In this document: positions 4,099 to 28,680 of the stretch, piece by piece
Position numbering within the stretch: the first letter of the stretch is position 1
Layout: each line of letters starts with the position of its first letter
Virus record (IMG/VR): IMGVR_UViG_3300042196_000209
Location: 1 to 37,907 of that record
Direction: 5' to 3' (one strand)
From: a virus
Lineage: Duplodnaviria > Caudoviricetes
DNA: 37,907 bases
Translations under genes and position numbers: made by a program
The notes under the pieces: model-generated
What the model saw: the letters and a program-made list of their open reading frames with translations, nothing else
What the model was told of the DNA's origin: nothing
Database searches by the model: none

Positions 4099-5531
4099 GG
4101 ACCGAGCCGTACAGACACCAGGCCGAGGAGTACGAGGCCTCCAAGGGCCTCGAGGCCCGCGCGCTCCTGTGGCAGATGCGAACTGGCAAGTCCAAGGTCA
4201 TAGTCGACACGGCGTTCCACCTGCGCGACGACCTGGCAATAGAGGGCGCCATCATCAACGCGCCGAACGGCGTCCACGCGAACTGGACCCGTCGAGAGCT
4301 GCCTAAGCACTCGTGGGACGACGGCTACTCTGCCCTCGCCTGGAGGTCGCGGCGCCCGGACATGGACGAGGTGGCGGCGCACTTCGCGCGTCACGCCGAG
4401 TTCCCCATCCTGGCCGTGAACAACGAGGTCCTGCCGAACCCGCGAGCGCAGGCGGCCATAAAGGGCATGCTGAAGCGCGGCCGACTCCTGTACGTCGCGG
4501 ACGAGTGCCACGACTTCCGCAGCCCCGGCTCCAGGCGCACTAAGCTGGCCCGCGGGCTGTCCGCCAAGTGCGCCTACAGGCGCATACTCACGGGCACAGC
4601 CGTCCTGAACAGCCCGCTTCACGCCTTCTCGCAGTTCGAGCTCCTGCAGAAGGGGGCCCTCGGCTACACGCGGTACGACGAGTTCCGGTCGCGCTTCGCG
4701 ACTGCGGTCATGCACACCACGAGGAGCGGGCGGCAGTTCCCGGAGTGGAGGCCGCGCGACCTGGGCGAGCTGCGCGAGAGGCTGGCTAGGTGGTCGTCCG
4801 TGGTCCTGCGGGCAGACGTGGACGACATGCCTGAACTGATCGAGGACGAGCGCCTGGTCTACATGAGCGCGTCGCAGTCCGAGGCCTACCTGCGGATGGT
4901 GAAGGAGTGGAAGCTCGACCTCGACGCCGGCTCCGTCTCCGTGAAGGAGGGTGGCGCGAGGATGATGAAGCTCCAGCAGATACTCGGCGGCTTCGTCATA
5001 ACAGACGACGGCGAGGTCAGATCCATAGAGGACAACCCCCCGCGCCTGGACGCGGTCGTAGAGCAGGTGGTCGGCACACTGCCCGGCAAGACCATAGTCT
5101 GGTGTCGCTTCCGGGAGGACATAAGGCGCGTCGTGGCCCGGCTCCGCGAGGAGGGCTTCGACCCGGTGGAGTACCACGGCGGCGTGTCGGCGGGTCTCAG
5201 GGACGAGACCGAGGACCGGTTCCGCGACGACCCGACCGCGAACCCACTTGTCGGCCAGCCCCAGTCGGGCGGCCAGGGGCTCGACCTGTCGACGGCGGAC
5301 ACGGTGGTCAACTACAGCCACTCGCACAACTCCATAATCCGCGAGCAGTCCAAGGAGAGGGCCACGGCCATCGGCGGCAAGTCCGTGGGCCTCGTGGACC
5401 TCAGGACGCCCGGCTCGGTGGACGACGTCATACTGGAGTGCGCCGCGGAGAACCTGAGCGTGTCCGAGTACCTCACCGGCCCCGGGCTGAAGCTGCGGCT
5501 GCAGGAGATACTGGACGCCACAGATGTGTGA
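4095..5531 (+). CDS. SNF2-family (superfamily 2) DNA helicase
   Basis: QMRTGKS Walker A, DECH box, LTGT motif III, GQGLDL, QSKERA motif VI. Confidence 0.92.
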   Translation: MRTEPYRHQAEEYEASKGLEARALLWQMRTGKSKVIVDTAFHLRDDLAIEGAIINAPNGVHANWTRRELPKHSWDDGYSALAWRSRRPDMDEVAAHFARHAEFPILAVNNEVLPNPRAQAAIKGMLKRGRLLYVADECHDFRSPGSRRTKLARGLSAKCAYRRILTGTAVLNSPLHAFSQFELLQKGALGYTRYDEFRSRFATAVMHTTRSGRQFPEWRPRDLGELRERLARWSSVVLRADVDDMPELIEDERLVYMSASQSEAYLRMVKEWKLDLDAGSVSVKEGGARMMKLQQILGGFVITDDGEVRSIEDNPPRLDAVVEQVVGTLPGKTIVWCRFREDIRRVVARLREEGFDPVEYHGGVSAGLRDETEDRFRDDPTANPLVGQPQSGGQGLDLSTADTVVNYSHSHNSIIREQSKERATAIGGKSVGLVDLRTPGSVDDVILECAAENLSVSEYLTGPGLKLRLQEILDATDV

Positions 5532-5542
5532 GGGGACACTGG

Positions 5543-5571
5543 CTGACGCCCCGCCATTCGTGTGGCATAGT
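5543..5571 (+). promoter_or_regulatory. Putative sigma70-like promoter CTGACG-N17-CATAGT
   Basis: Intergenic; 17-bp spacer; TG before the -10; same pattern as 5939 and 15757. Confidence 0.45.
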
Positions 5572-5611
5572 GGGAGGGAACGAGCACTGAACCGAATAGG
5601 AAGGGCGTCAC

Positions 5612-5923
5612 ATGAGCGAGGATAAGAAGAAGGTCGCGGGCATCGGCATGATCGCGATCGAGGCAATCTTGGCCGGCAAGACAAACGAGCAGGCGTTGGA
5701 GGCCGTCAGCAAGGCGCACCCGGGGGCGAACACTGGCATGGCCTCCATCAACTGGTACCGGAACAAGCTGCGCGCGGAGGGTGCCAAGCTGAAGGGCTCC
5801 AGCAAGCCGGTGCCGACCAGCCGCGAGCTGGCCGCTGCGGCCAAGAAGGTCAACGGCGCGGCCCCAAAGAAGGCCCCAAAGAAGGCCCCAAAGAAGGCCG
5901 AGCCGACCGATCCGTTGGCTTAA
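5612..5923 (+). CDS. Small basic DNA-binding protein with histone-like APKK repeats
   Basis: Helical/HTH-like core (TNEQALEAV...HPGANTGMASINWYRNKLR) and an (APKK)x3 tail. Confidence 0.7.
   Translation: MSEDKKKVAGIGMIAIEAILAGKTNEQALEAVSKAHPGANTGMASINWYRNKLRAEGAKLKGSSKPVPTSRELAAAAKKVNGAAPKKAPKKAPKKAEPTDPLA
5861..5899 (+). repeat. 12-bp tandem repeat GCCCCAAAGAAG x3
   Basis: Read directly; encodes APKK repeats. Confidence 0.9.
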
Positions 5924-5967
5924 CCATAAATTAGGGGGCTCACGTGACCCCTCGAATATGGTATAAA
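5920..5967 (+). promoter_or_regulatory. CtrA-like box TTAA-N7-TTAG followed by putative promoter CTCACG-N17-TATAAA
   Basis: TTAACCATAAATTAG at 5920-5934; -35 at 5939-5944; -10 at 5962-5967. Confidence 0.5.
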
Positions 5968-5994
5968 GGGTCCACCTCATTGGTGGACCCTTTA
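5964..5994 (+). terminator. Perfect 13-bp hairpin, probable intrinsic terminator
   Basis: TAAAGGGTCCACC-tcatt-GGTGGACCCTTTA downstream of 5612..5923. Confidence 0.65.
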
Positions 5995-6062
5995 ACCTTA
6001 TGGAGCTCAGCATGCTACTGACCAAAGAGCCGTCTACCAACGCGGACTGCCGGACGGCGGAC

Positions 6063-6764
6063 ATGCCCGGCGATCTCAGCTACCAGGCCGTCTACTACAT
6101 GAACGGCCCGGCCCCGAAGTGTGGCAGGAGCGACTTCGCGATCAAGGACCCGCCGAACGCCGGCTGGTCGTTCGCGTTCGTGATCGGGGCTCCGGACGCG
6201 AAGCGGGTCACGCTGTTCTGCCCGTTCACGATCCAGTCGTACCAAATCCCGGCCACGGCCGGCGAGCTCAGGAAGCGCGAGCGCCTGCACATGAGCAACG
6301 CCCGAAAGAGCTGGCTCATAGCGCGGATCACGGAGAACTGGCGCGACTTCGTAAAGCTGGGCCTGGCCCGGGACTACGACGTGGCCGCCGTGGTGCTGAC
6401 CAGGCTCGGCGCCGAGGTGCCGACGGCGTCTGTACCGGACGTCACTGTCGGGCCGTCCACAGAGGCCGACGGCTACGTACCGTCCGTCTCCCGTGAGCGC
6501 AAGGAGCGCCGCGGTGGCAAGGACCACGCGGACGCGCTGCTGAGACCGGTCGCCAGGTCGAGCAAGCGGGGCCAGGTGGCGGAGTTCTTCCTCGGCTCTG
6601 AGCCGAGGTCGGTGCGGGAGTGCATGGCCCGCATGGACATGTCGCGCAACAGCGTGCTGTCCGCGCTCCACGTGCTGAACAAGACCCACGGCCTCGGCTA
6701 CGAGGTGCTGAACGACACGGCCAGGGTGGACGCGCCGACCGACTGGAATATATGGGGCGAGTGA
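6063..6764 (+). CDS. Hypothetical protein with C-terminal winged-helix-like segment (start uncertain, 6000-6063)
   Basis: C-terminal RSVRECMARMDMSRNSVLSALHVLNKTHGLGYEV resembles a wHTH. Confidence 0.65.
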   Translation: MPGDLSYQAVYYMNGPAPKCGRSDFAIKDPPNAGWSFAFVIGAPDAKRVTLFCPFTIQSYQIPATAGELRKRERLHMSNARKSWLIARITENWRDFVKLGLARDYDVAAVVLTRLGAEVPTASVPDVTVGPSTEADGYVPSVSRERKERRGGKDHADALLRPVARSSKRGQVAEFFLGSEPRSVRECMARMDMSRNSVLSALHVLNKTHGLGYEVLNDTARVDAPTDWNIWGE

Positions 6765-6765
6765 C

Positions 6766-6945
6766 GTGCCACAGTTCGACGTGACACGGAGGGCCGACGG
6801 AGCCTGCCTGATCGTCATGACCGAGCGGTACAGTACGGTAGCGGTCGCGCACTGCCCGCCGGGGTGTCACCCCACCGAGACACAGGTCCGCGAGTGCGTG
6901 CGCGCGATGATGGGTGAGCCCGTCCATGTCGACCAGACTTGTTGA
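6766..6945 (+). CDS. Hypothetical 59-aa protein (not in the ORF track)
   Basis: GTG at 6766, MPQFDVTRRADGACLIV...DQTC, TGA at 6943-6945; fills the gap. Confidence 0.45.
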   Translation: MPQFDVTRRADGACLIVMTERYSTVAVAHCPPGCHPTETQVRECVRAMMGEPVHVDQTC

Positions 6946-7366
6946 CGCCCCGCCGCGCGGACGGCTGTTTCAGGAGGCGCTCCGGCGTCGTCCGTTCTGG
7001 ATGCTTGTCGCGTGCTGCCTTGTGAACCTGACCACGTGGGAGCAGGCGAGGCCCGTTCTGCGCAGCCTCATGCGGCACCACACCATAGGGTCGCTCGCCT
7101 CGGCCGACCCCGCCTCGATCGAGCCGTTGCTGAGGCCGCTCGGCCTCCAGCGCGTCAGGTCCGAGCGCTTGACAAGAATGGCCCGTGCTTGGTTGCACGC
7201 GAGGCCAAGGGGGTATAATGACGTGATTGGACTGCCCGGGTGTGGCAAGTACGCAGGTCACTCATGGGCAATCTTTATAGATGGCTGTCTCAATGTACAG
7301 CCCGACGACGGTAAATTAAATTGGTACTTGGACAAAATACGCAGTGAGCACGACAGAGCAGCATAG
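6926..7366 (+). CDS. MBD4-like HhH-GPD DNA glycosylase (T/U:G mismatch type)
   Basis: LFQEAL..PFWMLVACCLVN.T, LLRPLGL, HhH LPGCGKYA..S..IF, and QPDDGKLNWY matching the MBD4 catalytic HPEDHKLNKY; no Fe-S cysteine cluster. Confidence 0.85.
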   Translation: MSTRLVDAPPRGRLFQEALRRRPFWMLVACCLVNLTTWEQARPVLRSLMRHHTIGSLASADPASIEPLLRPLGLQRVRSERLTRMARAWLHARPRGYNDVIGLPGCGKYAGHSWAIFIDGCLNVQPDDGKLNWYLDKIRSEHDRAA

Positions 7367-7422
7367 GCGCTGGCGAGCTAATAACAGGGACAAGGTCGCT
7401 ACGAACTCAAGAGCCTACATAG

Positions 7423-7720
7423 CATGCCTATCCGGTTGTCGCCCAAGGAGACTAGATGATGAAGTCTGAATACGCGCCGATCACCATTGATCAGAAGCTC
7501 GGATATTTGGTTGAGGAGTGTGGCGAAGTTCTAGCGGCAGTCGGAAAGACACAGCGCTGGGGGCTTAATAGCTTCAATCCGGAGCCTGGCGCCAGCCGCG
7601 AAACAAACCGCGAATGGATATTGCGGGAGTTGGACGACCTTGAGAACGCCTGCCACCTTGTTCGCTCGGCCTTGGACGGCTCAATGGGTGGTAGCAATGG
7701 GTAACAACCGGATAGGCATG
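7423..7720. mobile_element. Non-autonomous 298-bp insertion cassette with 23-bp TIRs and an 8-bp TSD (CTACATAG)
   Basis: Left end CATGCCTATCCGGTTGTCGCCCA; right end TGGGTAACAACCGGATAGGCATG (21/23 inverted match); CTACATAG at 7415-7422 and 7721-7728. Confidence 0.88.
7456..7704 (+). CDS. MazG-like nucleotide pyrophosphohydrolase (cargo of the cassette)
   Basis: LVEECGEV...ELDDL (EExxE...ExxD); AAGGAG RBS just inside the left TIR; stop codon inside the right TIR. Confidence 0.75.
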   Translation: MMKSEYAPITIDQKLGYLVEECGEVLAAVGKTQRWGLNSFNPEPGASRETNREWILRELDDLENACHLVRSALDGSMGGSNG

Positions 7721-8078
7721 CTACATAGAGCGGCACTTCGCCCGGTACATGCTCAAGAGAACTCGGGACAGCGCACGGCTCAGGAAGCTAGATTTCAGCC
7801 TTACCGAGGAATGGATACAGGGGTACCTCGATATCGGTCGGTGCCAGGTTACAGGTCTTACCTTTGATTTTAAGGTCGGTACTGGTGCCGGCAATAATGG
7901 CCGCAATCCATACGGTCCTAGCATAGACCGAAAAGACCCATCTAAAGGCTATACTGGGGACAACTGCCAGGTCGTTTTGTGGATGTTGAATGCGGCAAAG
8001 GGGTCTTGGAGCATGGACGAAGTGATGACGCTCGCAAGAGCGTTGATCGACTCAACTAACACGTAAATAGGAGGAGAG

Positions 8079-9209
8079 ATGGGCGCATACCGCAACTCGC
8101 TGCGTGAGGAGGGTTCCAGGAAGGACCTGCTCAGGGCACTGGAGCACACGTGGCATCAGATCGACGAGCTGAATGGCGAGAGCGTCGTGCCGTCGATGGC
8201 CACAGACGTCGAGCGCTTCAACCGGGAGCTGTTGGGCTTTCCCGTGCCGACCGTGCCGACCAAGCTACGCGGCTCCGGTCGGCTCATGCGGTCGAAGCAC
8301 CTGCTCGAGGAGCTGCAGGAGTTCACCGACGCCACGACGGCGTTCGACCAGGCGGACGCCCTTGTCGACCTCGTGTACGTAGCGCTCGGCGGGCTGATCC
8401 AGATGGGCATGTGCCCCGGCGCGGCGTTCGAGGAGGTGCACCGTACGAACATGCTCAAGCGCAGGGGCGCGCAGGCGAAGCGCCCGGACAGCTGCGGCTA
8501 CGACGCCGTGAAGCCGAAGGGCTGGACCGCGCCTGACCTGAAGAAGCTGCTCCTGGTGTCCCTGGACGACGTCGACTGGCTGGCCGAGTACAGGTGGATG
8601 ACCGACGGCCCGCAGGCGGAAGTGTGCTTTCATGTGTCTGAGCCTGAGCCGATGCCAAAGCCGAAGATACTCGTACTCGGCTACGCGCGCCACGGCAAGG
8701 ACACCGTCGGCGAGATGCTTCGCGACAGGTACGGCCTGAGCTTCACTTCGAGCAGCATGTTCTGCGCAGAACGGGTGATGATGCCATACTTCCGCCGCAA
8801 GGGCAACGCGGAATTTAGGGATAAACCCGACGCTATACAGGACACGCCGCACTACCTAAACGCACAGGAGTGCTTCGAGGACCGCGCCAACCACCGCGCG
8901 GAGTGGTACGAGGCCATACGTGATTTCAACCAGCCCGACGCGACGGCGCTCGCCCGCGCTATCCTCGAGGAGCACGACGTCTACTGTGGCATCCGCAGCA
9001 AGGCCGAGCTCAGCGCGTGCCGGGTCGCGGGCGTCTTCGACGTAATCGTCTGGATCGACCGCACCGACCACCAACCGCCCGAGGACCGGTCGTCCTGCAC
9101 TGTCGAGCCGTGGATGGCCGACTACGTGATCGACAACAACGGCACGCTGGAGGACCTCGCGCTCAACGTAGAGCGACTGGCGACGAGCATGGGCCTGGAG
9201 GCTGCCTGA
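8079..9209 (+). CDS. Fusion of an all-alpha (MazG/DR2231-like) dNTP pyrophosphatase and a P-loop dNMP kinase
   Basis: N-terminal LLEELQEF...DALVDLVYVALG...EVHRTNMLK...VKPKGW; C-terminal LGYARHGKDT P-loop...DYVIDNNGTLEDL; AGGAG RBS. Confidence 0.85.
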   Translation: MGAYRNSLREEGSRKDLLRALEHTWHQIDELNGESVVPSMATDVERFNRELLGFPVPTVPTKLRGSGRLMRSKHLLEELQEFTDATTAFDQADALVDLVYVALGGLIQMGMCPGAAFEEVHRTNMLKRRGAQAKRPDSCGYDAVKPKGWTAPDLKKLLLVSLDDVDWLAEYRWMTDGPQAEVCFHVSEPEPMPKPKILVLGYARHGKDTVGEMLRDRYGLSFTSSSMFCAERVMMPYFRRKGNAEFRDKPDAIQDTPHYLNAQECFEDRANHRAEWYEAIRDFNQPDATALARAILEEHDVYCGIRSKAELSACRVAGVFDVIVWIDRTDHQPPEDRSSCTVEPWMADYVIDNNGTLEDLALNVERLATSMGLEAA

Positions 9210-9210
9210 C

Positions 9211-10035
9211 ATGTACCAGACCTACCCGAACATCGTGAGGCACATCATGGGCCCCGACGCCGTGACCGAGGTCAACACCCGCACTGGTCACGAGATCAGG
9301 ATGCTGCCGTACCCGATCGGCTTCCAGGTCGACCTGCGCTCCGACCATATACCTCTGCCCGGTAACCGGCGCGTGTTCCCGCAGACCGCGGCGGCTGAGC
9401 AGGCGTGGTTCCTCAGCGGCAAGAGGGACGTCAACTGGCTGCGCAAGTACTGCAAAATCTGGGACAAGTTCACGGAGGACGACGACGTCACGGTCGACGC
9501 GGCCTACGGCTACCGCTGGCGCAGTCACTTCGGCCGCGACCAGCTGGGCCTGGCGATCGATGCACTAGAGAAGAACCCGACGGACCGACGCGTGTTCGTG
9601 TCTGCGTGGGACCCCGCGATGGACGGTCTCGGCGCCGAGGGTCAGCGGAACGTGCCGTGCCCCGTCGGCTTCACGCTGAGCGTCGTCGAGGGCCACCTAA
9701 ACTCCGCGCTGATGATACGCTCGAGCGACGTGTTCGTCGGCCTACCGTACGACGTCATCGGCCACGCGCTGCTCATGGACGCCGTGGCCGTCAGCCTGGG
9801 CGTCAGGGGTCTCGGCTGGATGCACGTCACGCTTGCGCATCCGCACATCTACGACGTGCACTACGACATGGCCCGCGAGAGCCTGGGGAGGACCTGGGCG
9901 GAGAAGCCCGTCATGCCGAGCTGGTCGGTAGAGGAGATCGAAGCGGACCCGGACGGCTACGTCGCCAAGGTCAAGGCGCTCACCGACCGCGTGAGACCGC
10001 ACGACTTCAACCCGAAGCCGGAGGTCACCCAGTAG
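9211..10035 (+). CDS. Thymidylate synthase homologue, predicted dCMP-specific (methyl- or hydroxymethyltransferase)
   Basis: TRTG, AEQAWFLSG, AYGYRW, catalytic PC, RSSDVFVGLPYD (Asp at E. coli TS Asn177), HPHIY. Confidence 0.88.
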   Translation: MYQTYPNIVRHIMGPDAVTEVNTRTGHEIRMLPYPIGFQVDLRSDHIPLPGNRRVFPQTAAAEQAWFLSGKRDVNWLRKYCKIWDKFTEDDDVTVDAAYGYRWRSHFGRDQLGLAIDALEKNPTDRRVFVSAWDPAMDGLGAEGQRNVPCPVGFTLSVVEGHLNSALMIRSSDVFVGLPYDVIGHALLMDAVAVSLGVRGLGWMHVTLAHPHIYDVHYDMARESLGRTWAEKPVMPSWSVEEIEADPDGYVAKVKALTDRVRPHDFNPKPEVTQ

Positions 10036-10112
10036 GCGCCCGTAGCTCAACCGGATAGAGCACCGATTTCCTAGGTCGGGGGTTGCAGGTTCGAGCCCTG
10101 CCGGGCGCACCA
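10036..10112 (+). tRNA. tRNA-Arg (anticodon CCT)
   Basis: Full cloverleaf: acceptor GCGCCCG/CGGGCGC, D arm GCTC/GAGC, anticodon loop TTCCTAG, TTCGAGC T loop, encoded CCA. Confidence 0.95.
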
Positions 10113-10129
10113 ACAGGGAGGGTCACACC

Positions 10130-10588
10130 ATGATACTGGGACAGGTCACCACGGGCACGCTGGAGTGGGACCGCCGCATGTACGGCCTAGCGCTCGAGGC
10201 CGCGTCCTGGTCCAAGGACCCGGTCCGCAAGGTCGGCAGCGTGGTCGTTTCCGCGGACCGGCGCAGGATGTCGCCCGGCTACAACGGCTTCCCGCGCGGC
10301 ACCCCGGACGTCAAGCAGCACCTCATGGACGAGACGATGCGTCAGATGCTGATGGTGCACGGCGAGGTCAACTCGATCATAAACGCGGGCTTCGACGTAG
10401 AGGGCTGCACCCTCTACGCGACTAAGTACCCGTGCCACGCCTGCGCCGGCATAATGGCGAACTCCAGGATCGCGCGCCTCGTGTGCCCGGCCCCAGACTA
10501 TGACAACCCTAAGTGGGACGAGTCCTACAGGGTGGCGTCTGAGGTCCTAGCGAACGCGTCCGTGGAGGTGGACAGATGCGACTCCTGA
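10130..10588 (+). CDS. dCMP deaminase (ComEB-like, Zn-dependent)
   Basis: SKDP..KVG, GYNGFPRG, HGEVNSI, PCHAC. Confidence 0.92.
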   Translation: MILGQVTTGTLEWDRRMYGLALEAASWSKDPVRKVGSVVVSADRRRMSPGYNGFPRGTPDVKQHLMDETMRQMLMVHGEVNSIINAGFDVEGCTLYATKYPCHACAGIMANSRIARLVCPAPDYDNPKWDESYRVASEVLANASVEVDRCDS

Positions 10589-11007
10589 TGGCGGTCTCAG
10601 TCGACGGGTTCCTCTGCATCGGCCCCGACGACGACATGACCTGGACCGGGCCCGCGGACAAGACGCTGTTCCGCGCGCTGACCTCTGTCGGGGGCATATG
10701 CGCGGCCGGCTCGGCGACGTGGCGGATCATGCCGCGTCTCGAGGGCCGGCAGCTCATACCGGTCTCACGGAGCGGCTACACCCTGCACAGGCTCGAGGCC
10801 GAGCACCCGGAGGCGTGGCTCATAGGGGGACCAACGATCGCCGTGGCCGCGCTCAGGCTGGGACTCGTGACGGAGATGCACCTGTCCGTCGTGCACAGTT
10901 ACCGCCTAGGGTCGGGCGTCAGCGTCCGATGCCTGGGGGACCTGAGTCGGCCGTCGATGCAGACGCACTTCGGGGAGGACCTGACGCACCGGGTCTACCG
11001 GCGATGA
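10576..11007 (+). CDS. Dihydrofolate reductase
   Basis: MAVSVDGF...MTW...DKTLFRALT...GSATW..MPRLEGR...WLIGG. Confidence 0.82.
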   Translation: MRLLMAVSVDGFLCIGPDDDMTWTGPADKTLFRALTSVGGICAAGSATWRIMPRLEGRQLIPVSRSGYTLHRLEAEHPEAWLIGGPTIAVAALRLGLVTEMHLSVVHSYRLGSGVSVRCLGDLSRPSMQTHFGEDLTHRVYRR

Positions 11008-22341: not shown

Positions 22342-25300
22342 CTATACCCTGGGGAACGGTCCCGCGGGCGGCGTGAAGTTCCCACTGTACCTGCCGACGC
22401 CCTTCGTCACGCGTATCTCGTCCTGGGAGCCGTGCATCTCTCGGTTGGCTACGCTCGGGTCGTCGCCTATGACGAGCGAGGCCCCGCTAGCAGTTATATC
22501 ATAGGAGGCGGTGTGGCTGACACCCTCCTGTACGCCGTTCACGAATAGCCTGGTCACGCCGTCCCGGCGGCTGACGGCCAGGTGCCTCCAGCCGCCACCC
22601 AGTACGTTGGTCGTGCCGGTGATGAGCTGCGAGCTCGAGTGGAACCACGCGTACGTCCCGGTTATTAGCAGGAACAGCCTCCACCACCCGGTGCCGGATG
22701 TGCCGCGGGTTATGACCCCGTCGGACCCGAAGCCCGCGGTCGGGTTGACCCACGTCTCCACAGTGAAGTCGTCGGTGCCGAAGTCGAAGTCCGTCAGGGT
22801 GCCGGTCACGTTCACGCGCGCAGTGGTCGCCCCCGACAGCAGGAGGGCGGCGGTGCCGAACTTCTTCACCGCGGTGTCGAGCTCGGCCCCGGGGGTGTCG
22901 AACGTGAGGGTGTGCGCGCTCGCGCTGTCGTCCGTGGAGGTCGTGGCGCCGTCCGCTCCGTCGAGGGCGAGCAGCAGGACCGTGAAGGCCAGGAACGGGT
23001 CGACGCCCACGAGCTCGAAGAGCTGACGCGTGTAGCGTCCCCGGCCGACGGTCGCGCTGACCTGGTAAATCTGGGCCTCTACGGTCGGCACGACGGATGC
23101 CGACAGCCCGGTCGCGGTGTTGTACTCCGCGGTCGTCAGTGTCGTGGCCGGCGAGGTGAGCCCGGTCCTGGTCAGGAATGGGACGGACGCCCCGACCTCG
23201 AAGAAGTCCACGTCGTACAGCTCCGCCTGCTCGTTGAGCGGGACCGTGTCGGTGCCGTCCAGTAGCTCGCCGTTGAAGCGCGTCCTGCGGACCCAGGTCA
23301 GTGCGAGGTCGCCCCCGGGCCTGGTGGCCACTACCTGCGCGACCGAGTAGGGCATGAGGTCCTGGCCGGTGTACGCAAAGCTGGTCGTCGGCGCGTCCTC
23401 GAGGAGTGTCCCGAACGTCACCGCGCGGTGCTGCGTGGTGACGTCCAGGAGGTCGAGCGGCAGCTGCATCGCCTCTATCGGCGACACGTCGAGCAGCACC
23501 CACCGCTCCCCGGGCACGTGATCCCTGGAGTTGTCCTCGGTGCCGAGCCGACCGCGGAGCAGTCTCGACAGCCTCACTGTGCCTGGGTCCGTCTGCGTCA
23601 CGTTCACGAACTGTATGATCTCCGGCAGGCCGTCGCCGCGCACGATCGCTATGGCGTTGGCGCCGTTGAGCACCTCCAGGTCCGTGGAGGATGAGAAGTC
23701 GCCTATGCCGCGGACAACCTTCAGGTCTACCATAGAGCTCTCGTCCCAGGTCGTCGTGGTAGACGGGTCCGCCAGCGTGCCTGCCACGGTGCCCCATGTG
23801 GCCTCGACGGATGAGCCGCCGATCTCGTCGAAGCTGGAGGCCCCGTCCCGCGACCGCATCAGCGTAGCCCCGGGCCACGAGTCCTCGTAGGCGGACACCG
23901 CCCAGTAGGCCCGGCTGAACTGCTGCAGGCTCGCGTCCACGGCCCTGAGTAGCGGCAGGTCTAGCAGGTGCAGCTTGGTCGGCAGCGCGGAGGATATGAA
24001 CTGCGCGGGGTGACCGAGGCCGCCGTCCGCGGCCACGGCGCTGACGTTGGACTCGGCGTCCTCCTGGGTGGCCGTGAACTCCGTGTCCAGGTCCGCACCC
24101 AGGTCTATCCTCGAGCCGCGCAGGCGCCGTGTCTCGCCGCGAAAGTTCAGCTCGAACACGTCTGTCGGGTCCAGCCTCATGTACCTCCAGGGGAGCACGC
24201 TCTCGACCGAGACGCGCTCAGACCATGAGGTGTAGAGCCACCTCTGCGCGAGGCGCTTCGCGTCGGGCGCCAGCATTACGATCGGCAGGTCCAACGTTAC
24301 CTCGTTCCGGGAGTACTGGCTGGGCGTGGGCAGGCTGACCCGCTTGTCCGACTGTACGCCGGCCTGGTAGTCCTTGTCCTTGTCCGCGAACCTGACCGAG
24401 AAGCGGCCGGGGAGTTCCACCTCCTGCGCGCGCACCTCTTTTATGACTTCAGAGTTGCCCGCGGTCGACGCCCGGCCGAGGTAGTCCTCGTCAATCGTCA
24501 GCACAGACGCGCCGCCACGTCGGACGAAGCGCATGCGCCAGTCTGTCTCAGCGCCCTCGAACAGGTAGCCGTTTATGAGCGGCTCCAGGGCGGATCGACC
24601 CGAGGCCTGCTTGGTCAGGCTGTAGCCCAGGACAGTCTCCGAGACGAGGTCCGACACGTCGAACAGCGTGTCGTCCAGGCCCGAGCGTCGTGAGATGTCC
24701 GCGACGACGTCGCTGAGCGGCACGCCAAGGCCGACCTTGCGGCCGAGCAGTATGCGCACCACCCTGTTGGAAGCGGGGTTCGTGACGTTGACCCGGGACA
24801 GCAGTATGGAGTGGTTCCGCGGGTCGTAGCCGGCCCGTTGGTAGTTTGCCTCTGCGCCGGGGAAGGGTATCCCCAGGTCTAGTTCGTCGACGACGGCGAG
24901 GTCGTCCGTGCTTATCGTGTACACGACCCCGACCGCCGATCCGCCGCCGGCGCCGTTGCCGAACGCGAACACGCCCGAGGTCGCGTACTGCTCCTGTGAG
25001 CCGAAGCCGAGTGCGAGGTTCCTGGCTAGTACAGCGCCCGTGTCCACGTCCACCTTGACCATGCTGACGGCGTTGGACAGGATGAGCGCGTTCTCTGACG
25101 GTACGTGACACCACCCGCTTAGGTCGCCCGTGCCGGCCCAGTCCGTCCCGCCCTTCAGGTATGTGCCGACCAGGCGCTTCACTGGGTTCGCCGCGGATAG
25201 ACCGAGGGGACCGACGTTGACGCCCGCTGTCACCTCCCAGACGTCGATCTGTGAGTCGTTCTCCTGACCGACGAACAGTCGTCTGTTCACGTGGTCCTGC

Positions 25301-26430
25301 ATGACGTGGGCGCCGCGGCCTATGTCTGTGTCCAGGTGGTTGTCCTGGACGAACGCGCCAGACTCGTTCTTGTAGAGGACCACGAAGCCCCCATCGCCGA
25401 GTAGGCTCATGCCCGAGAAGACGTACACGTCCACGAAGCCCTGGCCCAGGTTCGGGTCGCCCACGCGTAGCACGCCGATGGAGACGGGTCTCGGGTAGTG
25501 CTGGAGCGTGCCCCATGACCCGAGCGCATTGGAGATGCCGAACTGCAGCCCGGTGGCCTCGAGCGTCACCGGGTCGTACTGTATCACCGGGGCGAAGTTC
25601 GGACCGCGCTGCCCCCAGACAAAGCCGTCCATGCAGTACCGCACGGCATCCGAGAACAAGTCGCCTATGCTGTTGTTCAGCACCACGGTGGACATGGAGC
25701 CCAGGGTCGACCGGCTTACGCCCGAGGCCTTGAGTATGTAGGCGTCGTCTGTGAAGGGGTCTATGTAAAAGTGGCTCTCCTGGTCCGAGCCCGTGGGCGA
25801 GCCCGGCACAACTTGCCCCGAGAGCAGGATCAACGGGTCGAACGGCGCGGTGACCTGCGAGCTGTACGCTATCTCCGCGGTGATGTTCGGTATGCGGTTG
25901 CCGAAGTTAGCCAGGGGCCACAGCTCCGCCACCAAGTAGCACATGCCGCGGTGGGCCGGGACGTTGCCCACGCCCTTGTCCGCCTCCATGAGGAAGTCTG
26001 GCTGCTGGGTCTCCGAGCCCCTGTAGAACCTGAACTTGTAGCCGCCGAAGCTCGTTGAGCCCGTCCGGTCATAGATCAGCTTGCCGTCGGCCCACAGCCT
26101 GAGCAGGTCATCTGCCTCGCCCTCGCCGAAGGACACGGCGAAGGACGCGAAGTACGAGAACGACGTTAGCGAGCTCTTCGGTGCACCGCCGCCCTTGCCG
26201 CCCTGCGTCTGTGTGCTGACCACCTCCTGAATGCCTGGGGACCATATGACGTTGCCGCTGGTGCGGGGAGTGCCATAGTGCACGAATATGGGCCCGCCGT
26301 ACGCCGACGACGTCACGCTCAGGTCGCTAAGCCTCGGCCCCACCTGCGACTGCCCCTTCGACGGGGCCAGGAGGTTCAGGACGATGCCGACGCCGATGTT
26401 GACCGCGGCCGAGACAAGTAGTGTTGCCAT
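22342..26430 (-). CDS. Central tail fibre / host-specificity protein (GTA g15-like) with C-terminal LamG domain
   Basis: GPRLSDL..TSSAYG...GNVIW, VPAHRG..Y, FGNRIPN, LLRGRLGTE, W.RRTR; C-terminal FTVETW...WRHLAV.R...LFVNG...DEIRVT. Confidence 0.88.
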   Translation of the reverse strand: MATLLVSAAVNIGVGIVLNLLAPSKGQSQVGPRLSDLSVTSSAYGGPIFVHYGTPRTSGNVIWSPGIQEVVSTQTQGGKGGGAPKSSLTSFSYFASFAVSFGEGEADDLLRLWADGKLIYDRTGSTSFGGYKFRFYRGSETQQPDFLMEADKGVGNVPAHRGMCYLVAELWPLANFGNRIPNITAEIAYSSQVTAPFDPLILLSGQVVPGSPTGSDQESHFYIDPFTDDAYILKASGVSRSTLGSMSTVVLNNSIGDLFSDAVRYCMDGFVWGQRGPNFAPVIQYDPVTLEATGLQFGISNALGSWGTLQHYPRPVSIGVLRVGDPNLGQGFVDVYVFSGMSLLGDGGFVVLYKNESGAFVQDNHLDTDIGRGAHVMQDHVNRRLFVGQENDSQIDVWEVTAGVNVGPLGLSAANPVKRLVGTYLKGGTDWAGTGDLSGWCHVPSENALILSNAVSMVKVDVDTGAVLARNLALGFGSQEQYATSGVFAFGNGAGGGSAVGVVYTISTDDLAVVDELDLGIPFPGAEANYQRAGYDPRNHSILLSRVNVTNPASNRVVRILLGRKVGLGVPLSDVVADISRRSGLDDTLFDVSDLVSETVLGYSLTKQASGRSALEPLINGYLFEGAETDWRMRFVRRGGASVLTIDEDYLGRASTAGNSEVIKEVRAQEVELPGRFSVRFADKDKDYQAGVQSDKRVSLPTPSQYSRNEVTLDLPIVMLAPDAKRLAQRWLYTSWSERVSVESVLPWRYMRLDPTDVFELNFRGETRRLRGSRIDLGADLDTEFTATQEDAESNVSAVAADGGLGHPAQFISSALPTKLHLLDLPLLRAVDASLQQFSRAYWAVSAYEDSWPGATLMRSRDGASSFDEIGGSSVEATWGTVAGTLADPSTTTTWDESSMVDLKVVRGIGDFSSSTDLEVLNGANAIAIVRGDGLPEIIQFVNVTQTDPGTVRLSRLLRGRLGTEDNSRDHVPGERWVLLDVSPIEAMQLPLDLLDVTTQHRAVTFGTLLEDAPTTSFAYTGQDLMPYSVAQVVATRPGGDLALTWVRRTRFNGELLDGTDTVPLNEQAELYDVDFFEVGASVPFLTRTGLTSPATTLTTAEYNTATGLSASVVPTVEAQIYQVSATVGRGRYTRQLFELVGVDPFLAFTVLLLALDGADGATTSTDDSASAHTLTFDTPGAELDTAVKKFGTAALLLSGATTARVNVTGTLTDFDFGTDDFTVETWVNPTAGFGSDGVITRGTSGTGWWRLFLLITGTYAWFHSSSQLITGTTNVLGGGWRHLAVSRRDGVTRLFVNGVQEGVSHTASYDITASGASLVIGDDPSVANREMHGSQDEIRVTKGVGRYSGNFTPPAGPFPRV

Positions 26431-26431
26431 G

Positions 26432-26854
26432 TCAGTCCGTCCTGAAGCTGAACACAGACACCATACTCAGCCTCCTCTCCTCGGTGAGCGCCTCCCTGAC
26501 CACCATGCGGGCGGGCAGGTACGCGTGTATCACCCACATCAGGCCGGCCGCGTCTCGCTCCAGTATGCCGACGTGGCAGGGGTGCCGCGGCTCCCTGAAT
26601 ACGGCCACCATGCCGTGGTCGGCCTCGGACCGCGGGCGCTCCGTCAGCTGGGCCCTCGCCAGCCTCAGGACGTCGGCCGGGTTCGGGCGCCGCGGGTAGT
26701 CCAGTGTATCGTACGTCGTCAGGCCAAGCGCGTGACCCACTTTTATGGGCACGCCTATGCAGTCCACGCCGAACCTGTCGCGGCCCTTGTCCCTGAACGG
26801 CACGCCGAGCCAGGTCTTCGCCTCGGCCACTATGAGGTCCTCGAGCGCGCTCAT
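26432..26854 (-). CDS. NlpC/P60 tail-tip peptidase (GTA g14-like)
   Basis: WLGVPF...GR...GVDCIG...HVGI...IHA. Confidence 0.9.
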   Translation of the reverse strand: MSALEDLIVAEAKTWLGVPFRDKGRDRFGVDCIGVPIKVGHALGLTTYDTLDYPRRPNPADVLRLARAQLTERPRSEADHGMVAVFREPRHPCHVGILERDAAGLMWVIHAYLPARMVVREALTEERRLSMVSVFSFRTD

Positions 26855-28680
26855 CCCTTTGCGTCCGGGTAGCCGTAAAGCAGGTCCTGTCCGGGCACGT
26901 ACGGCTCGCCCCTGAAGTTGTCCACGTTGTCGAACACGTCCCTGCAGTCCTCGAGCACTCTCTTCAGGCAGCCCCGGTACACGCGGCCCGTGTCTCCGAC
27001 CTCCACGTCGAAAGGCATGTCGAGGAACAGGTTCAGGTCCTGCTCTATGGTGACGCCGTCGTCCGCTGTGAAGCCCCTGATCTCCATCGCCTTGCCGGCG
27101 TTGGGGCCTGTCTCCCAGAATACAACCCCGCCGTCCAGGGCGCCGTCCGGGAAGTGGTCACGGCCGATCGTCGAGCCGCCCGAGTTCGGGGTGAGCTCGG
27201 AGACCGTGAACTTCTTGCGCGGCTCCGTGGGGTCCACGGCGACCACCTCGACGCACCTGGACCACGCCTGCTCCGCGGTGAACACCGCGCTGCCGTCTGC
27301 CGTGGTGTTGCCCACCGCGGAGTCGTACGCGGGCTGGACAGAGCCCGTGGTACCCGCGGTAGCGCACCTGTATATGCGGTCCTCGAAGTCCGGGCACAGG
27401 AGGCCCTCGAGTATCTCGCTGGATGAGAGGAACTGCGCGGTCGGCGGAGTGAAACCTGAGGTGTAAGCGGCGGCCCCTACTATGAACCTGAACTCGTCCA
27501 CGAACCCGTGCAGCGGACTGTCGTCGAACCCGGCGCTCCTGAACGCGCCGAGCCTGATGGGAGTGGTGCTGTTGAAGATGCTGCCACCGTTATTCAGCAC
27601 GGCCCCCTGTTGGACGCCGTCTACGAATAGTCTGATATCGCTCGACGCGTCCCTAGTCACGGCGACGTGGTACCACGTGTCGACGGCCCATGTGACGGCC
27701 CGTGCCATGGTCGTCACCGTTGATCCATTCAGCGAGAACGCGAACTCTATGTCGGAGCCATTACGGTTGAGCCTCCATGCTCGCTGGTTGCCTGTGTTCA
27801 AATAGTGCGAAGCAAATATCTGTAGGGTCTGCGTCAGGTCCTTGAACCTGACTTGCGCCTCGATGGTGAACTGCTGCGTGCCTATGGTGTACGCAGCGAT
27901 GTCGGGGTAGCTCACCACCGCCGCTGTGGGGTCCACGGAGCCCGATGGGGAGAACTCTATGGAGCCCGCGCCGAACTTCTTCTCGATGGTCTGCACCGCC
28001 GCCTGCGCGCCAGGTGTGGCCGTGGCCGCGTTCGGACTGTAGTCGTCTGCGTCCTCGTCAGCGTGCACGAGCAAGGTGGGCGTAAGCACACCCTCCAGCG
28101 CCGGACTGGCCCGCACGAAGTCGCCGACGACGTAGGCCGTGGACCTGAGTACAACGGGCGGCAGTATAGGGACCCCGCATCGAATGTCGCCCAGGTCCGC
28201 TCGGCACTCCGGGCTGTATAGCTCGCCTATGCTCCTTGAGTACGCCTGTGTCAGTCCGCGGAGCTCTGCGGTGAACAGCCCGCTCGGGGTGATCGTGACC
28301 TCCCCCAGCCAGCCCTTGCGCATCCTGAGCACGCCTTGCGAGAGGTCCGACCAGTTCACGGTGAAGATGTCCACCTCTGCGAAGTCGAATAGCCCGCGCC
28401 GCAGCTCGGTCTCGTCTATATCCGCGTCGTCGAGCACGCCGGTCAGGTCGAGGTTGTCGACCGCGAGCGTGTCGTCGTTCCTGATGGCCGACCTATTGTA
28501 CGAGCTGGAGGCCTTATAGGTGCTGAGGCCCTTGCCGTCTGCCAGGTCGACTGGAAGACTCACATCGTGGTCCGTGAAGTGGAAGGCCTGCCCGTCGACG
28601 CGCGTCACGCGCCAGCACGTGGCGAGCATCGTGACCTCGCCCTGCAGGTGTGTGTTTAGTGCTACGCTCGCGGACTTCAT
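26851..28680 (-). CDS. Tail hub protein (DUF2163/BR0599, GTA g13-like) with an inserted LamG domain
   Basis: CWRVTR.DG..F.FTDHD, CRADLGD.RC, GC.K....C...F.N..NFRGEPYVPG. Confidence 0.88.
   Translation of the reverse strand: MKSASVALNTHLQGEVTMLATCWRVTRVDGQAFHFTDHDVSLPVDLADGKGLSTYKASSSYNRSAIRNDDTLAVDNLDLTGVLDDADIDETELRRGLFDFAEVDIFTVNWSDLSQGVLRMRKGWLGEVTITPSGLFTAELRGLTQAYSRSIGELYSPECRADLGDIRCGVPILPPVVLRSTAYVVGDFVRASPALEGVLTPTLLVHADEDADDYSPNAATATPGAQAAVQTIEKKFGAGSIEFSPSGSVDPTAAVVSYPDIAAYTIGTQQFTIEAQVRFKDLTQTLQIFASHYLNTGNQRAWRLNRNGSDIEFAFSLNGSTVTTMARAVTWAVDTWYHVAVTRDASSDIRLFVDGVQQGAVLNNGGSIFNSTTPIRLGAFRSAGFDDSPLHGFVDEFRFIVGAAAYTSGFTPPTAQFLSSSEILEGLLCPDFEDRIYRCATAGTTGSVQPAYDSAVGNTTADGSAVFTAEQAWSRCVEVVAVDPTEPRKKFTVSELTPNSGGSTIGRDHFPDGALDGGVVFWETGPNAGKAMEIRGFTADDGVTIEQDLNLFLDMPFDVEVGDTGRVYRGCLKRVLEDCRDVFDNVDNFRGEPYVPGQDLLYGYPDAKG

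Follow-up and report, generated by a model that had tools for sequence, protein, structure and literature searches.

A probable transposase-less IS1595-type cassette with a single passenger gene, inserted in an endonuclease gene of a tailed phage

Anatomy of the locus and its two alleles

The window analysed here is the whole 37,907-nt stretch of a tailed-phage record that is about 64% complete. Thymidylate synthases with ~50% identity to that of this phage occur in phages of Janthinobacterium, Rhodobacter, Xanthomonas, Stenotrophomonas and Pseudomonas whose genomes measure 56-65 kb. Within the window, a 298-bp element (7423-7720) that contains one 82-codon gene is inserted in frame in a phage endonuclease gene. 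Its boundaries and the exact 8-bp target duplication around it are observed directly, as the initial annotation had claimed. The features of the locus are as follows.

7344..7422, + strand: 5' piece of the endonuclease gene, with a GTG start and no clear RBS
7415..7422, + strand: left copy of the target duplication, CTACATAG, 8 bp; the single copy in the empty allele
7423..7445, + strand: left terminal inverted repeat, IS1595/ISAcr1 type
7446..7461, + strand: inner left end, comprising the RBS (7446-7450) and a conserved 10-bp box (7452-7461)
7456..7704, + strand: cargo gene, 82 aa, with its stop (7702-7704) inside the right repeat
7687..7697, + strand: inner right end, a motif common to two cassettes with unrelated cargo (E29, E30 and E36 compared), which encodes the last residues of the cargo
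7698..7720, - strand: right terminal inverted repeat, containing the cargo stop codon; 22/23 identical to the ISAcr1 right end
7721..7728, + strand: right copy of the target duplication, CTACATAG, an exact 8-bp match to the left copy
7729..8066, + strand: 3' piece of the endonuclease gene, of phage HNH/EndoVII-like families (phrog_3322, E 5.7e-27)

The two inverted ends match at 21 of 23 positions. The pair of 23-bp inverted repeats described initially is present, but the conserved ends reach farther, to about 33-36 bp; the left one takes in the RBS and the first ATG, and the right one takes in the final codons together with the stop. The layout of the single gene is as first described, with the AGGAG RBS directly after the left repeat and the stop within the right one. 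The 10-bp box of the left end lies at element position 30 and contains the ATG at 7456. Based on sequence comparison, this first ATG likely belongs to the end and the second ATG (7459) is likely the cargo's own start, since homologues without the extra methionine start at the second ATG. On the right, a 9-bp end motif begins at 7687, which is about where free cargo homologues diverge. The end-supplied first ATG, the right motif and this point of divergence together suggest that the captured stretch runs from the start codon of the gene to just before its stop. At up to three mismatches the window contains the end sequence just twice (mean in shuffles, 0.06), and a position-weight scan of the window finds no ends beyond the same two. 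By a rough estimate, the chance of such an end pair with an exact 8-bp flank is ~1e-6.

With the insertion in place, the 5' piece of the endonuclease gene runs on into the cassette and stops at 7469. By frame arithmetic, the flanking pieces (79 nt and 338 nt) make up 139 codons in a single frame with no internal stop, which bears out the earlier statement that removal of the element plus one duplication restores the host frame. The phrog_3322 match of the 3' piece starts at profile position 55 of 162, and the first ATG of this piece (7749) has no RBS ahead of it. A proposed comparison with homologues, which should carry the N-terminal segment restored by excision, gave a divided answer. Two of the three homologues (149 and 154 aa) extend farther on the N-terminal side, and the 5' piece has a weak match to the N-terminal part of P0004 (pairwise E 0.006 with 8/21 identities), but the third homologue, P0002 (110 aa, 69% identical), begins where the 3' piece begins, which counts against the restored N-terminus. 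Endonuclease relatives in IMG/VR are too distant for an empty-site comparison.

The GC content of the endonuclease region (7200-8066) is about 0.52-0.54 compared with 0.65 for the phage, and on the strength of this low GC the cassette appears to sit within an earlier likely insertion. The surrounding 6914-11007 is a nucleotide-metabolism cluster with an HhH-GPD-like gene, thymidylate synthase, dCMP deaminase and a DHFR-like gene, and the same cluster includes, at 8079-9209, a pyrophosphohydrolase fused to a dNMP kinase-like domain. Among 80 loci for this last gene, only one (L034) matches beyond the kinase half. A promoter scan of 5400-8300, which phage-type promoters could escape, gave nothing above shuffles. 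Elsewhere in the window, two tail proteins (1362 and 609 aa; 22342-28680) share a ~220-aa domain and the same PHROG families (3545, 24074).

Twelve sequencing runs contain part of 6800-8400 and eight of them were examined; one (X11) yielded nothing and two (X7, X10) yielded short pieces only. The empty-site allele, which the initial annotation had proposed to look for, is observed directly in two sediment runs, X5 and X6. In each, position 7414 runs directly into 7721 on one contig and 306 bases are missing; eight letters fit both sides, and one copy of the duplication is left. The short side of this contig has 123 letters in X6 and 30 letters in X5, the latter one under the bridging threshold, and X5 shows no depth over the element. 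The depths of the empty-site contigs are low (5.9 and 2.8) and the two studies possibly belong to one campaign. A base change at 6991 is linked to the empty site in both runs, and the empty allele is thus a distinct haplotype. Furthermore, X5 has no listed difference within the endonuclease gene, which suggests a recent insertion. The filled allele is found in X1, possibly the source run of the window itself, as a single contig across the whole region, and in X3 and X4, where overlapping pieces cover both junctions.

These runs hold other arrangements as well. A 58-nt contig of X3 joins 7339 to 8041 on a 28-letter side, a weak case in which 7340-8040 including the cassette is missing; such a variant would lose most of the endonuclease gene, and the glycosylase-like gene upstream would stop a few codons early. 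In X3/X4 and X6, the left 30-39 nt of the element (7423-7461) stand behind other flanks, which likely belong to sister cassettes, either elsewhere in this habitat or in the part of the phage that the record lacks. Because these flanks are absent from the window, they are no evidence for an adjacent deletion or for a second site. A second site of the exact cassette was not found with a 28-nt left-end pattern, which hit one viral contig with other cargo, and blastn gave no match to the element in 50,697 INPHARED phage records.

The ends, their transposase family and sister cassettes

The initial annotation had noted that the window is without a transposase, and a scan of its large ORFs agrees, the record being only about 64% complete. 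Inside the element, an IS1595 transposase (DDE_Tnp_IS1595, with its usual N-terminal zinc ribbon) is likewise absent, the sole ORF being the 82-aa cargo. The mobilizing family had been called unidentifiable. This view did not hold, as the ends are shared with transposase-bearing elements that identify it as IS1595, ISAcr1-like. Direct observation places the same ends, with exact 8-bp duplications, around intact IS1595 transposases in two elements (L008, L018) that match PF12762 and PF12760 (E 1e-35, 8e-37) and score above the NCBIfam IS1595 cut-off (NF033547); these are autonomous partners of the kind that had been sought. Residues D156, D237 and E301 are invariant in 15 of 15 aligned IS1595-type transposases. 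The nearest named element is ISAcr1, which is 67% identical to the L008 transposase and whose right end differs from that of the window element at one position of 23; the ISAcr1 copy examined (L525) has no matching duplication at its flanks. The end motifs may point to the ISSod11 group of IS1595. The window element thus resembles IS1595/ISAcr1 in end sequence, in the 8-bp duplication and in having the inner gene's stop codon within the right end, and differs from it in that there is no transposase and a phage gene fills the interior. According to the accessible part of PMC8101967, the IS1595 family makes 8-bp duplications, encodes a single transposase with a zinc finger and a DDE domain, and is divided into named groups; its founding paper is Siguier, Gagnevin and Chandler 2009, as cited in the accessible part of PMC3129680. 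In two cases a transposase-bearing element and a cassette lie on one viral contig (L008/L169, L175/L182). A search of INPHARED for the partner transposase returned only two distant records (27%) and no example from cultured phages.

The end sequence is widespread and is found on cassettes with other cargo, as a proposed search for sister cassettes had anticipated. None of the three findings that would have spoken against the initial annotation, concerning the empty site, the spread of the ends and the endonuclease N-terminus, arose. An exact 17-mer of the end occurs at 25 viral loci, a looser end pattern at at least 150 viral loci in IMG/VR (about 370 estimated) and a somewhat stricter one at at least 139 loci in cellular genomes (about 410 estimated); full flanks were obtained for 80 loci each of the viral and cellular listings. 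Among the matches listed, 93 of 147 distinct inward-facing end pairs have an exact 8-bp duplication, compared with one pair at 9 bp, two at 3 bp and two at 4 bp. Allowing one mismatch in the duplication gives 104 elements among the matches listed, with one tandem duplicate dropped. On viral contigs, 48 of the 54 bounded elements among the matches listed are transposase-less (207-1191 bp), most of them with one tightly fitted gene, and the remaining 6 have a transposase, all together with passengers. The matches listed from cellular genomes comprise 13 bare ISs, 23 elements of <230 bp, 8 larger transposase-less elements, 2 elements with passengers and 2 partial ones. These counts are indicative of a prevalence of bare ISs and empty MITEs in cellular genomes as opposed to cargo cassettes in viral contigs; the contrast is not a measured rate, since elements were sorted by their length and a tblastn hit (with one of 207 bp put in the cargo class by hand) and the search patterns differed.

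Sister cassettes are observed directly, and one of them indicates that transposase-less units do move: a 365-bp cassette (E37/E38, 98% identical) is present at two different target sites. In the set of 49 cassettes made up of the 48 viral ones and the window element, one ORF fills 41, compared with 9.8% of length-matched control windows (by heuristic gene calls), and 44 have one called gene. Stops cluster at end-supplied codons, at 13, 16, 29, 35 and 41 nt from the end. The left-end type of the window occurs in 12 of the 49, and the ORF starts of all 12 are in one frame, at position 34 or at 37. The cargoes are mostly unrelated, with four related pairs among transposase-less elements of at least 200 bp. 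Thirteen of 72 cargo or passenger ORFs scanned have a PHROG hit, namely four DNA methyltransferases, two Mom-like proteins, a radical SAM protein, a PAPS reductase, a peptidase, a TnpB and three families without known function, so that DNA-modification genes form the largest named group (6/13). A test of strand agreement with neighboring genes was mixed (upstream 42/48, downstream 27/47) and is unreliable, as it miscalled the window element itself.

Several individual elements are worth recording. TnpB is the sole gene of one cassette (L193 1253-2408), and a shortened relative lies in a cellular contig (L336 2501-2878). Three unrelated cassettes (L001 3001-3480, L009 3001-3496, L195 2521-3023) have the same RBS-containing 8-mer duplicated before the host start codon, and an ATG follows close behind the right end in 16 of 55 viral elements, a count made without a control. 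Cassettes or ends stand side by side, array-like, in four viral contigs (L013 2523-3416, L006 3001-4081, L129 3001-5826, L012 2705-3313), and in L002 (2243-2976) a cytosine methyltransferase cargo is split across two overlapping frames.

The inner box of the ends allows two readings. The 10-bp core used in the end scan, modeled on the NrdR box, occurs with at most one mismatch in 25 of 49 left ends and in 19 of 49 right ends, compared with 4.2% for control windows, and sits at fixed positions 29-30 or 40 of the ends. This enrichment and positioning would be expected if the box were a site for the host dNTP sensor NrdR that couples cassette expression or movement to nucleotide pools, an idea that we nevertheless regard as improbable. 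NrdR needs two boxes ~31-32 bp, or about three turns, apart (accessible parts of PMC2892513 and PMC9110341), whereas these ends carry one as a rule; in the window element the left end contains a box with one mismatch, the right end contains no box, and the two-box spacing is absent. In addition, the center of the motif varies in autonomous elements. The constant distance from the end suits a site for the transposase, which is the simpler reading of the box. A search of the literature, mainly of openly readable papers, found no description of NrdR boxes in IS ends.

The cargo protein

The cargo is an 82-aa two-helix protein that matches phrog_4856 (E 9.5e-10) and has no Pfam or NCBIfam hit above cut-off. 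It scores 13.5 bits against Pfam MazG, for which the cut-off is 22, and 45 of 50 family members likewise match Pfam MazG below the cut-off (E <= 0.1, best 0.0011). An Atlas cluster, 31% of whose members have MazG, matches the cargo at 0.91, and the cargo has relatives in cultured phages that are annotated as MazG-like. In 50 aligned members, which are 57-89% identical and of the same short length, E20, E21, E24 and E58 are invariant and D61 is nearly so. These acidic residues lie on helices 11-35 and 51-74 of the predicted model (pLDDT 90), and we take acidic metal-binding residues on two helices to be the MazG-type pattern. In a Foldseek search with this model the top rows were iMazG, dCTPase and YpjD, all at E >= 0.2, with no match at E <= 0.001. 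A wide fold search returned generic hairpins that are not specific (Z <= 7.9), and for 2p06 it gave Z 6.8, rmsd 1.5, 57 aligned residues and 30% identity. The profile of the cargo family gave two chance rows only against PDB sequences. A resemblance of the cargo to MazG-type NTP pyrophosphohydrolases is weakly but consistently supported by these profiles and by the predicted model. The original label of a mazG-like gene stands insofar as the PHROG hit, the sub-threshold Pfam match and the acidic residues favor it, and falls short in that no Pfam or NCBIfam hit exceeds the cut-off.

The toxicity of TIR-STING is countered by Atd1, a MazG-like phage protein that depletes (p)ppGpp (accessible part of bioRxiv 10.1101/2022.06.09.495361). 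The cargo shares with Atd1 and phage MazG-like proteins a weak profile and fold resemblance and the conserved acidic residues on two helices. It is shorter than MazG-like pyrophosphohydrolases and below the Pfam cut-off, and it is set beside Atd1 by description only. By analogy, an Atd1-like counter-defence role is possible for the cargo, and nucleotide pool clean-up would fit the neighborhood of thymidylate synthase, dCMP deaminase and DHFR equally well.

The cargo gene family is also directly observed free of the cassette. The protein collection contains 210 homologues with identities of up to 89%, and at 123 of 124 loci with a cargo homologue (some duplicated between collections) no end rises above background. 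In another phage (L116), a clear left end stands at the same distance from the start codon, and an eroded right end lies 294 bp away, scoring 9.6 against a background maximum of 10.9, with flanks that match at 5/8. We read L116 as a putative old and eroded copy of the same cassette.

Origin, movement and significance

We consider it very probable that the element is a transposase-less IS1595 (ISAcr1-like) cassette with one passenger, inserted in the endonuclease gene with an 8-bp duplication and likely moved in trans. An IS1595 transposase from the host or from a co-infecting phage would act on it; this DDE transposase would bind both ends, cut the unit out and insert it with an 8-bp stagger. 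The cassette may have originated when an ordinary phage gene replaced the transposase of an IS, or when a passenger-carrying IS lost its transposase, and it would then have been trimmed until the ends provided RBS, start and stop. It would have no promoter of its own and would be read from the same-strand operon of phage replication genes. The insertion would be tolerated because the disrupted endonuclease gene is dispensable, the function of the endonuclease being lost. As an oligomer, the cargo would probably hydrolyse nucleotides of the (d)NTP type and so serve either to clean up the pool or to counter host defence. Over time the ends would erode, and the cargo would then look like an ordinary phage gene.

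The mobile insertion cassette is a known class, and MICs, transporter ISs and small phage mobile elements have all been known before. According to the accessible part of PMC3129680, MICs are derivatives that have no transposase and are activated by a cognate one, and a transporter IS is an IS that carries passengers. The likeness to MICs that the initial annotation had pointed out is borne out by IS ends around a passenger gene and the lack of an own transposase, as in MIC231 of Bacillus cereus, and it would extend to activation in trans by a cognate transposase. Insertion as a unit, a further feature of MICs, is seen in the duplication and the empty site and in the sister cassette at two sites. 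Unlike MICs and transporter ISs, the window element resides in a phage, measures only 298 bp and has ends that provide RBS, start and stop, and its sisters are concentrated in viral contigs and hold phage-type genes. A search of mainly openly readable papers found no description of IS1595-derived one-gene cassettes in phages; Siguier 2009 may cover IS1595 MICs.

Mycobacteriophage elements MPME1 and MPME2 are also small, bounded by inverted repeats, located within phage genes and missing from empty sites in relatives, and MPME1 (439 bp) has a similar size and a single ORF (accessible part of PMC3029335). By analogy, the window element might be autonomous, with the small ORF itself mobilizing it, but we assign this a very slight chance: the 210 homologues of the ORF are almost always found without ends, the unrelated ORFs of the sister elements contradict it, and MPME adds 6 foreign bp at its left end and has a conserved interior (same source), whereas the window element has an exact 8-bp duplication with one copy in the empty site, a variable cargo and a known IS family. 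The suspicion that the element is an assembly artefact or a chance repeat, which arises because the window comes from a metagenome assembly, is practically negligible and was rejected: one contig of X1 spans the region, X3 and X4 cover both junctions, the family is large with many sister end pairs, and both filled and empty alleles are found in the runs.

Two further proposals accept the cassette and concern its history or its use. It is possible, if doubtful, that the element is a selfish hitch-hiker whose cargo, maybe a shortened inactive MazG-like protein, is useless to the phage. The element is indeed polymorphic in the population, the X3 variant appears without 7340-8040 including the cassette (on a weak, 28-letter side), and the phage already owns the pyrophosphohydrolase-domain gene at 8079. 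On the other hand, the ORF is intact and has an RBS, and the acidic motif invariant in the 50 aligned members at the same short length points to a function. Dedicated gene capture, an integron-like sampling of genes for phages in which the IS ends or the transposase would attach to a donor gene at its start and stop codons, would account for the uniform start in the 12 cassettes of the window's left-end type, for the single called gene in 44 of 49 with stops at end-supplied codons, and for the mostly unrelated cargoes with their four related pairs. We think it unlikely, as selection for expression and small size would yield the same picture, passenger-carrying elements whose transposase stops in the right end are plausible precursors, and no intermediate was seen among the elements examined. 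We retain the trans-mobilized IS1595-type cassette, putatively formed by replacement or loss of a transposase and subsequent trimming, as the preferred reading.

For this known class, the window element offers a case in which the empty allele occurs naturally, a named IS has a nearly identical end, and the cargo also sits in a sister copy that has eroded. The gain of single accessory genes at clean boundaries is usually ascribed to rare illegitimate recombination followed by selection. The dozens of sisters found in other phages point to a likely way for phages to acquire extra genes, on which a named transposon family leaves datable marks. More speculatively, ISAcr1-like ends could serve as shells, ready for expression, into which single genes are captured at their start and stop codons before the ends erode, and a sizeable share of morons could be old cassettes; this broader idea has perhaps one chance in a few of being right. 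If it is true, the filled allele, the empty allele and the eroded sister would represent three stages of a cycle of capture, delivery and erosion between unrelated phages. The DNA-modification cargoes are typical counter-defence genes, and the ends provide a search handle for small phage genes without known function that are under active exchange. Finally, the 36-bp ends and the 350-aa transposase form a two-part system that is directly testable.
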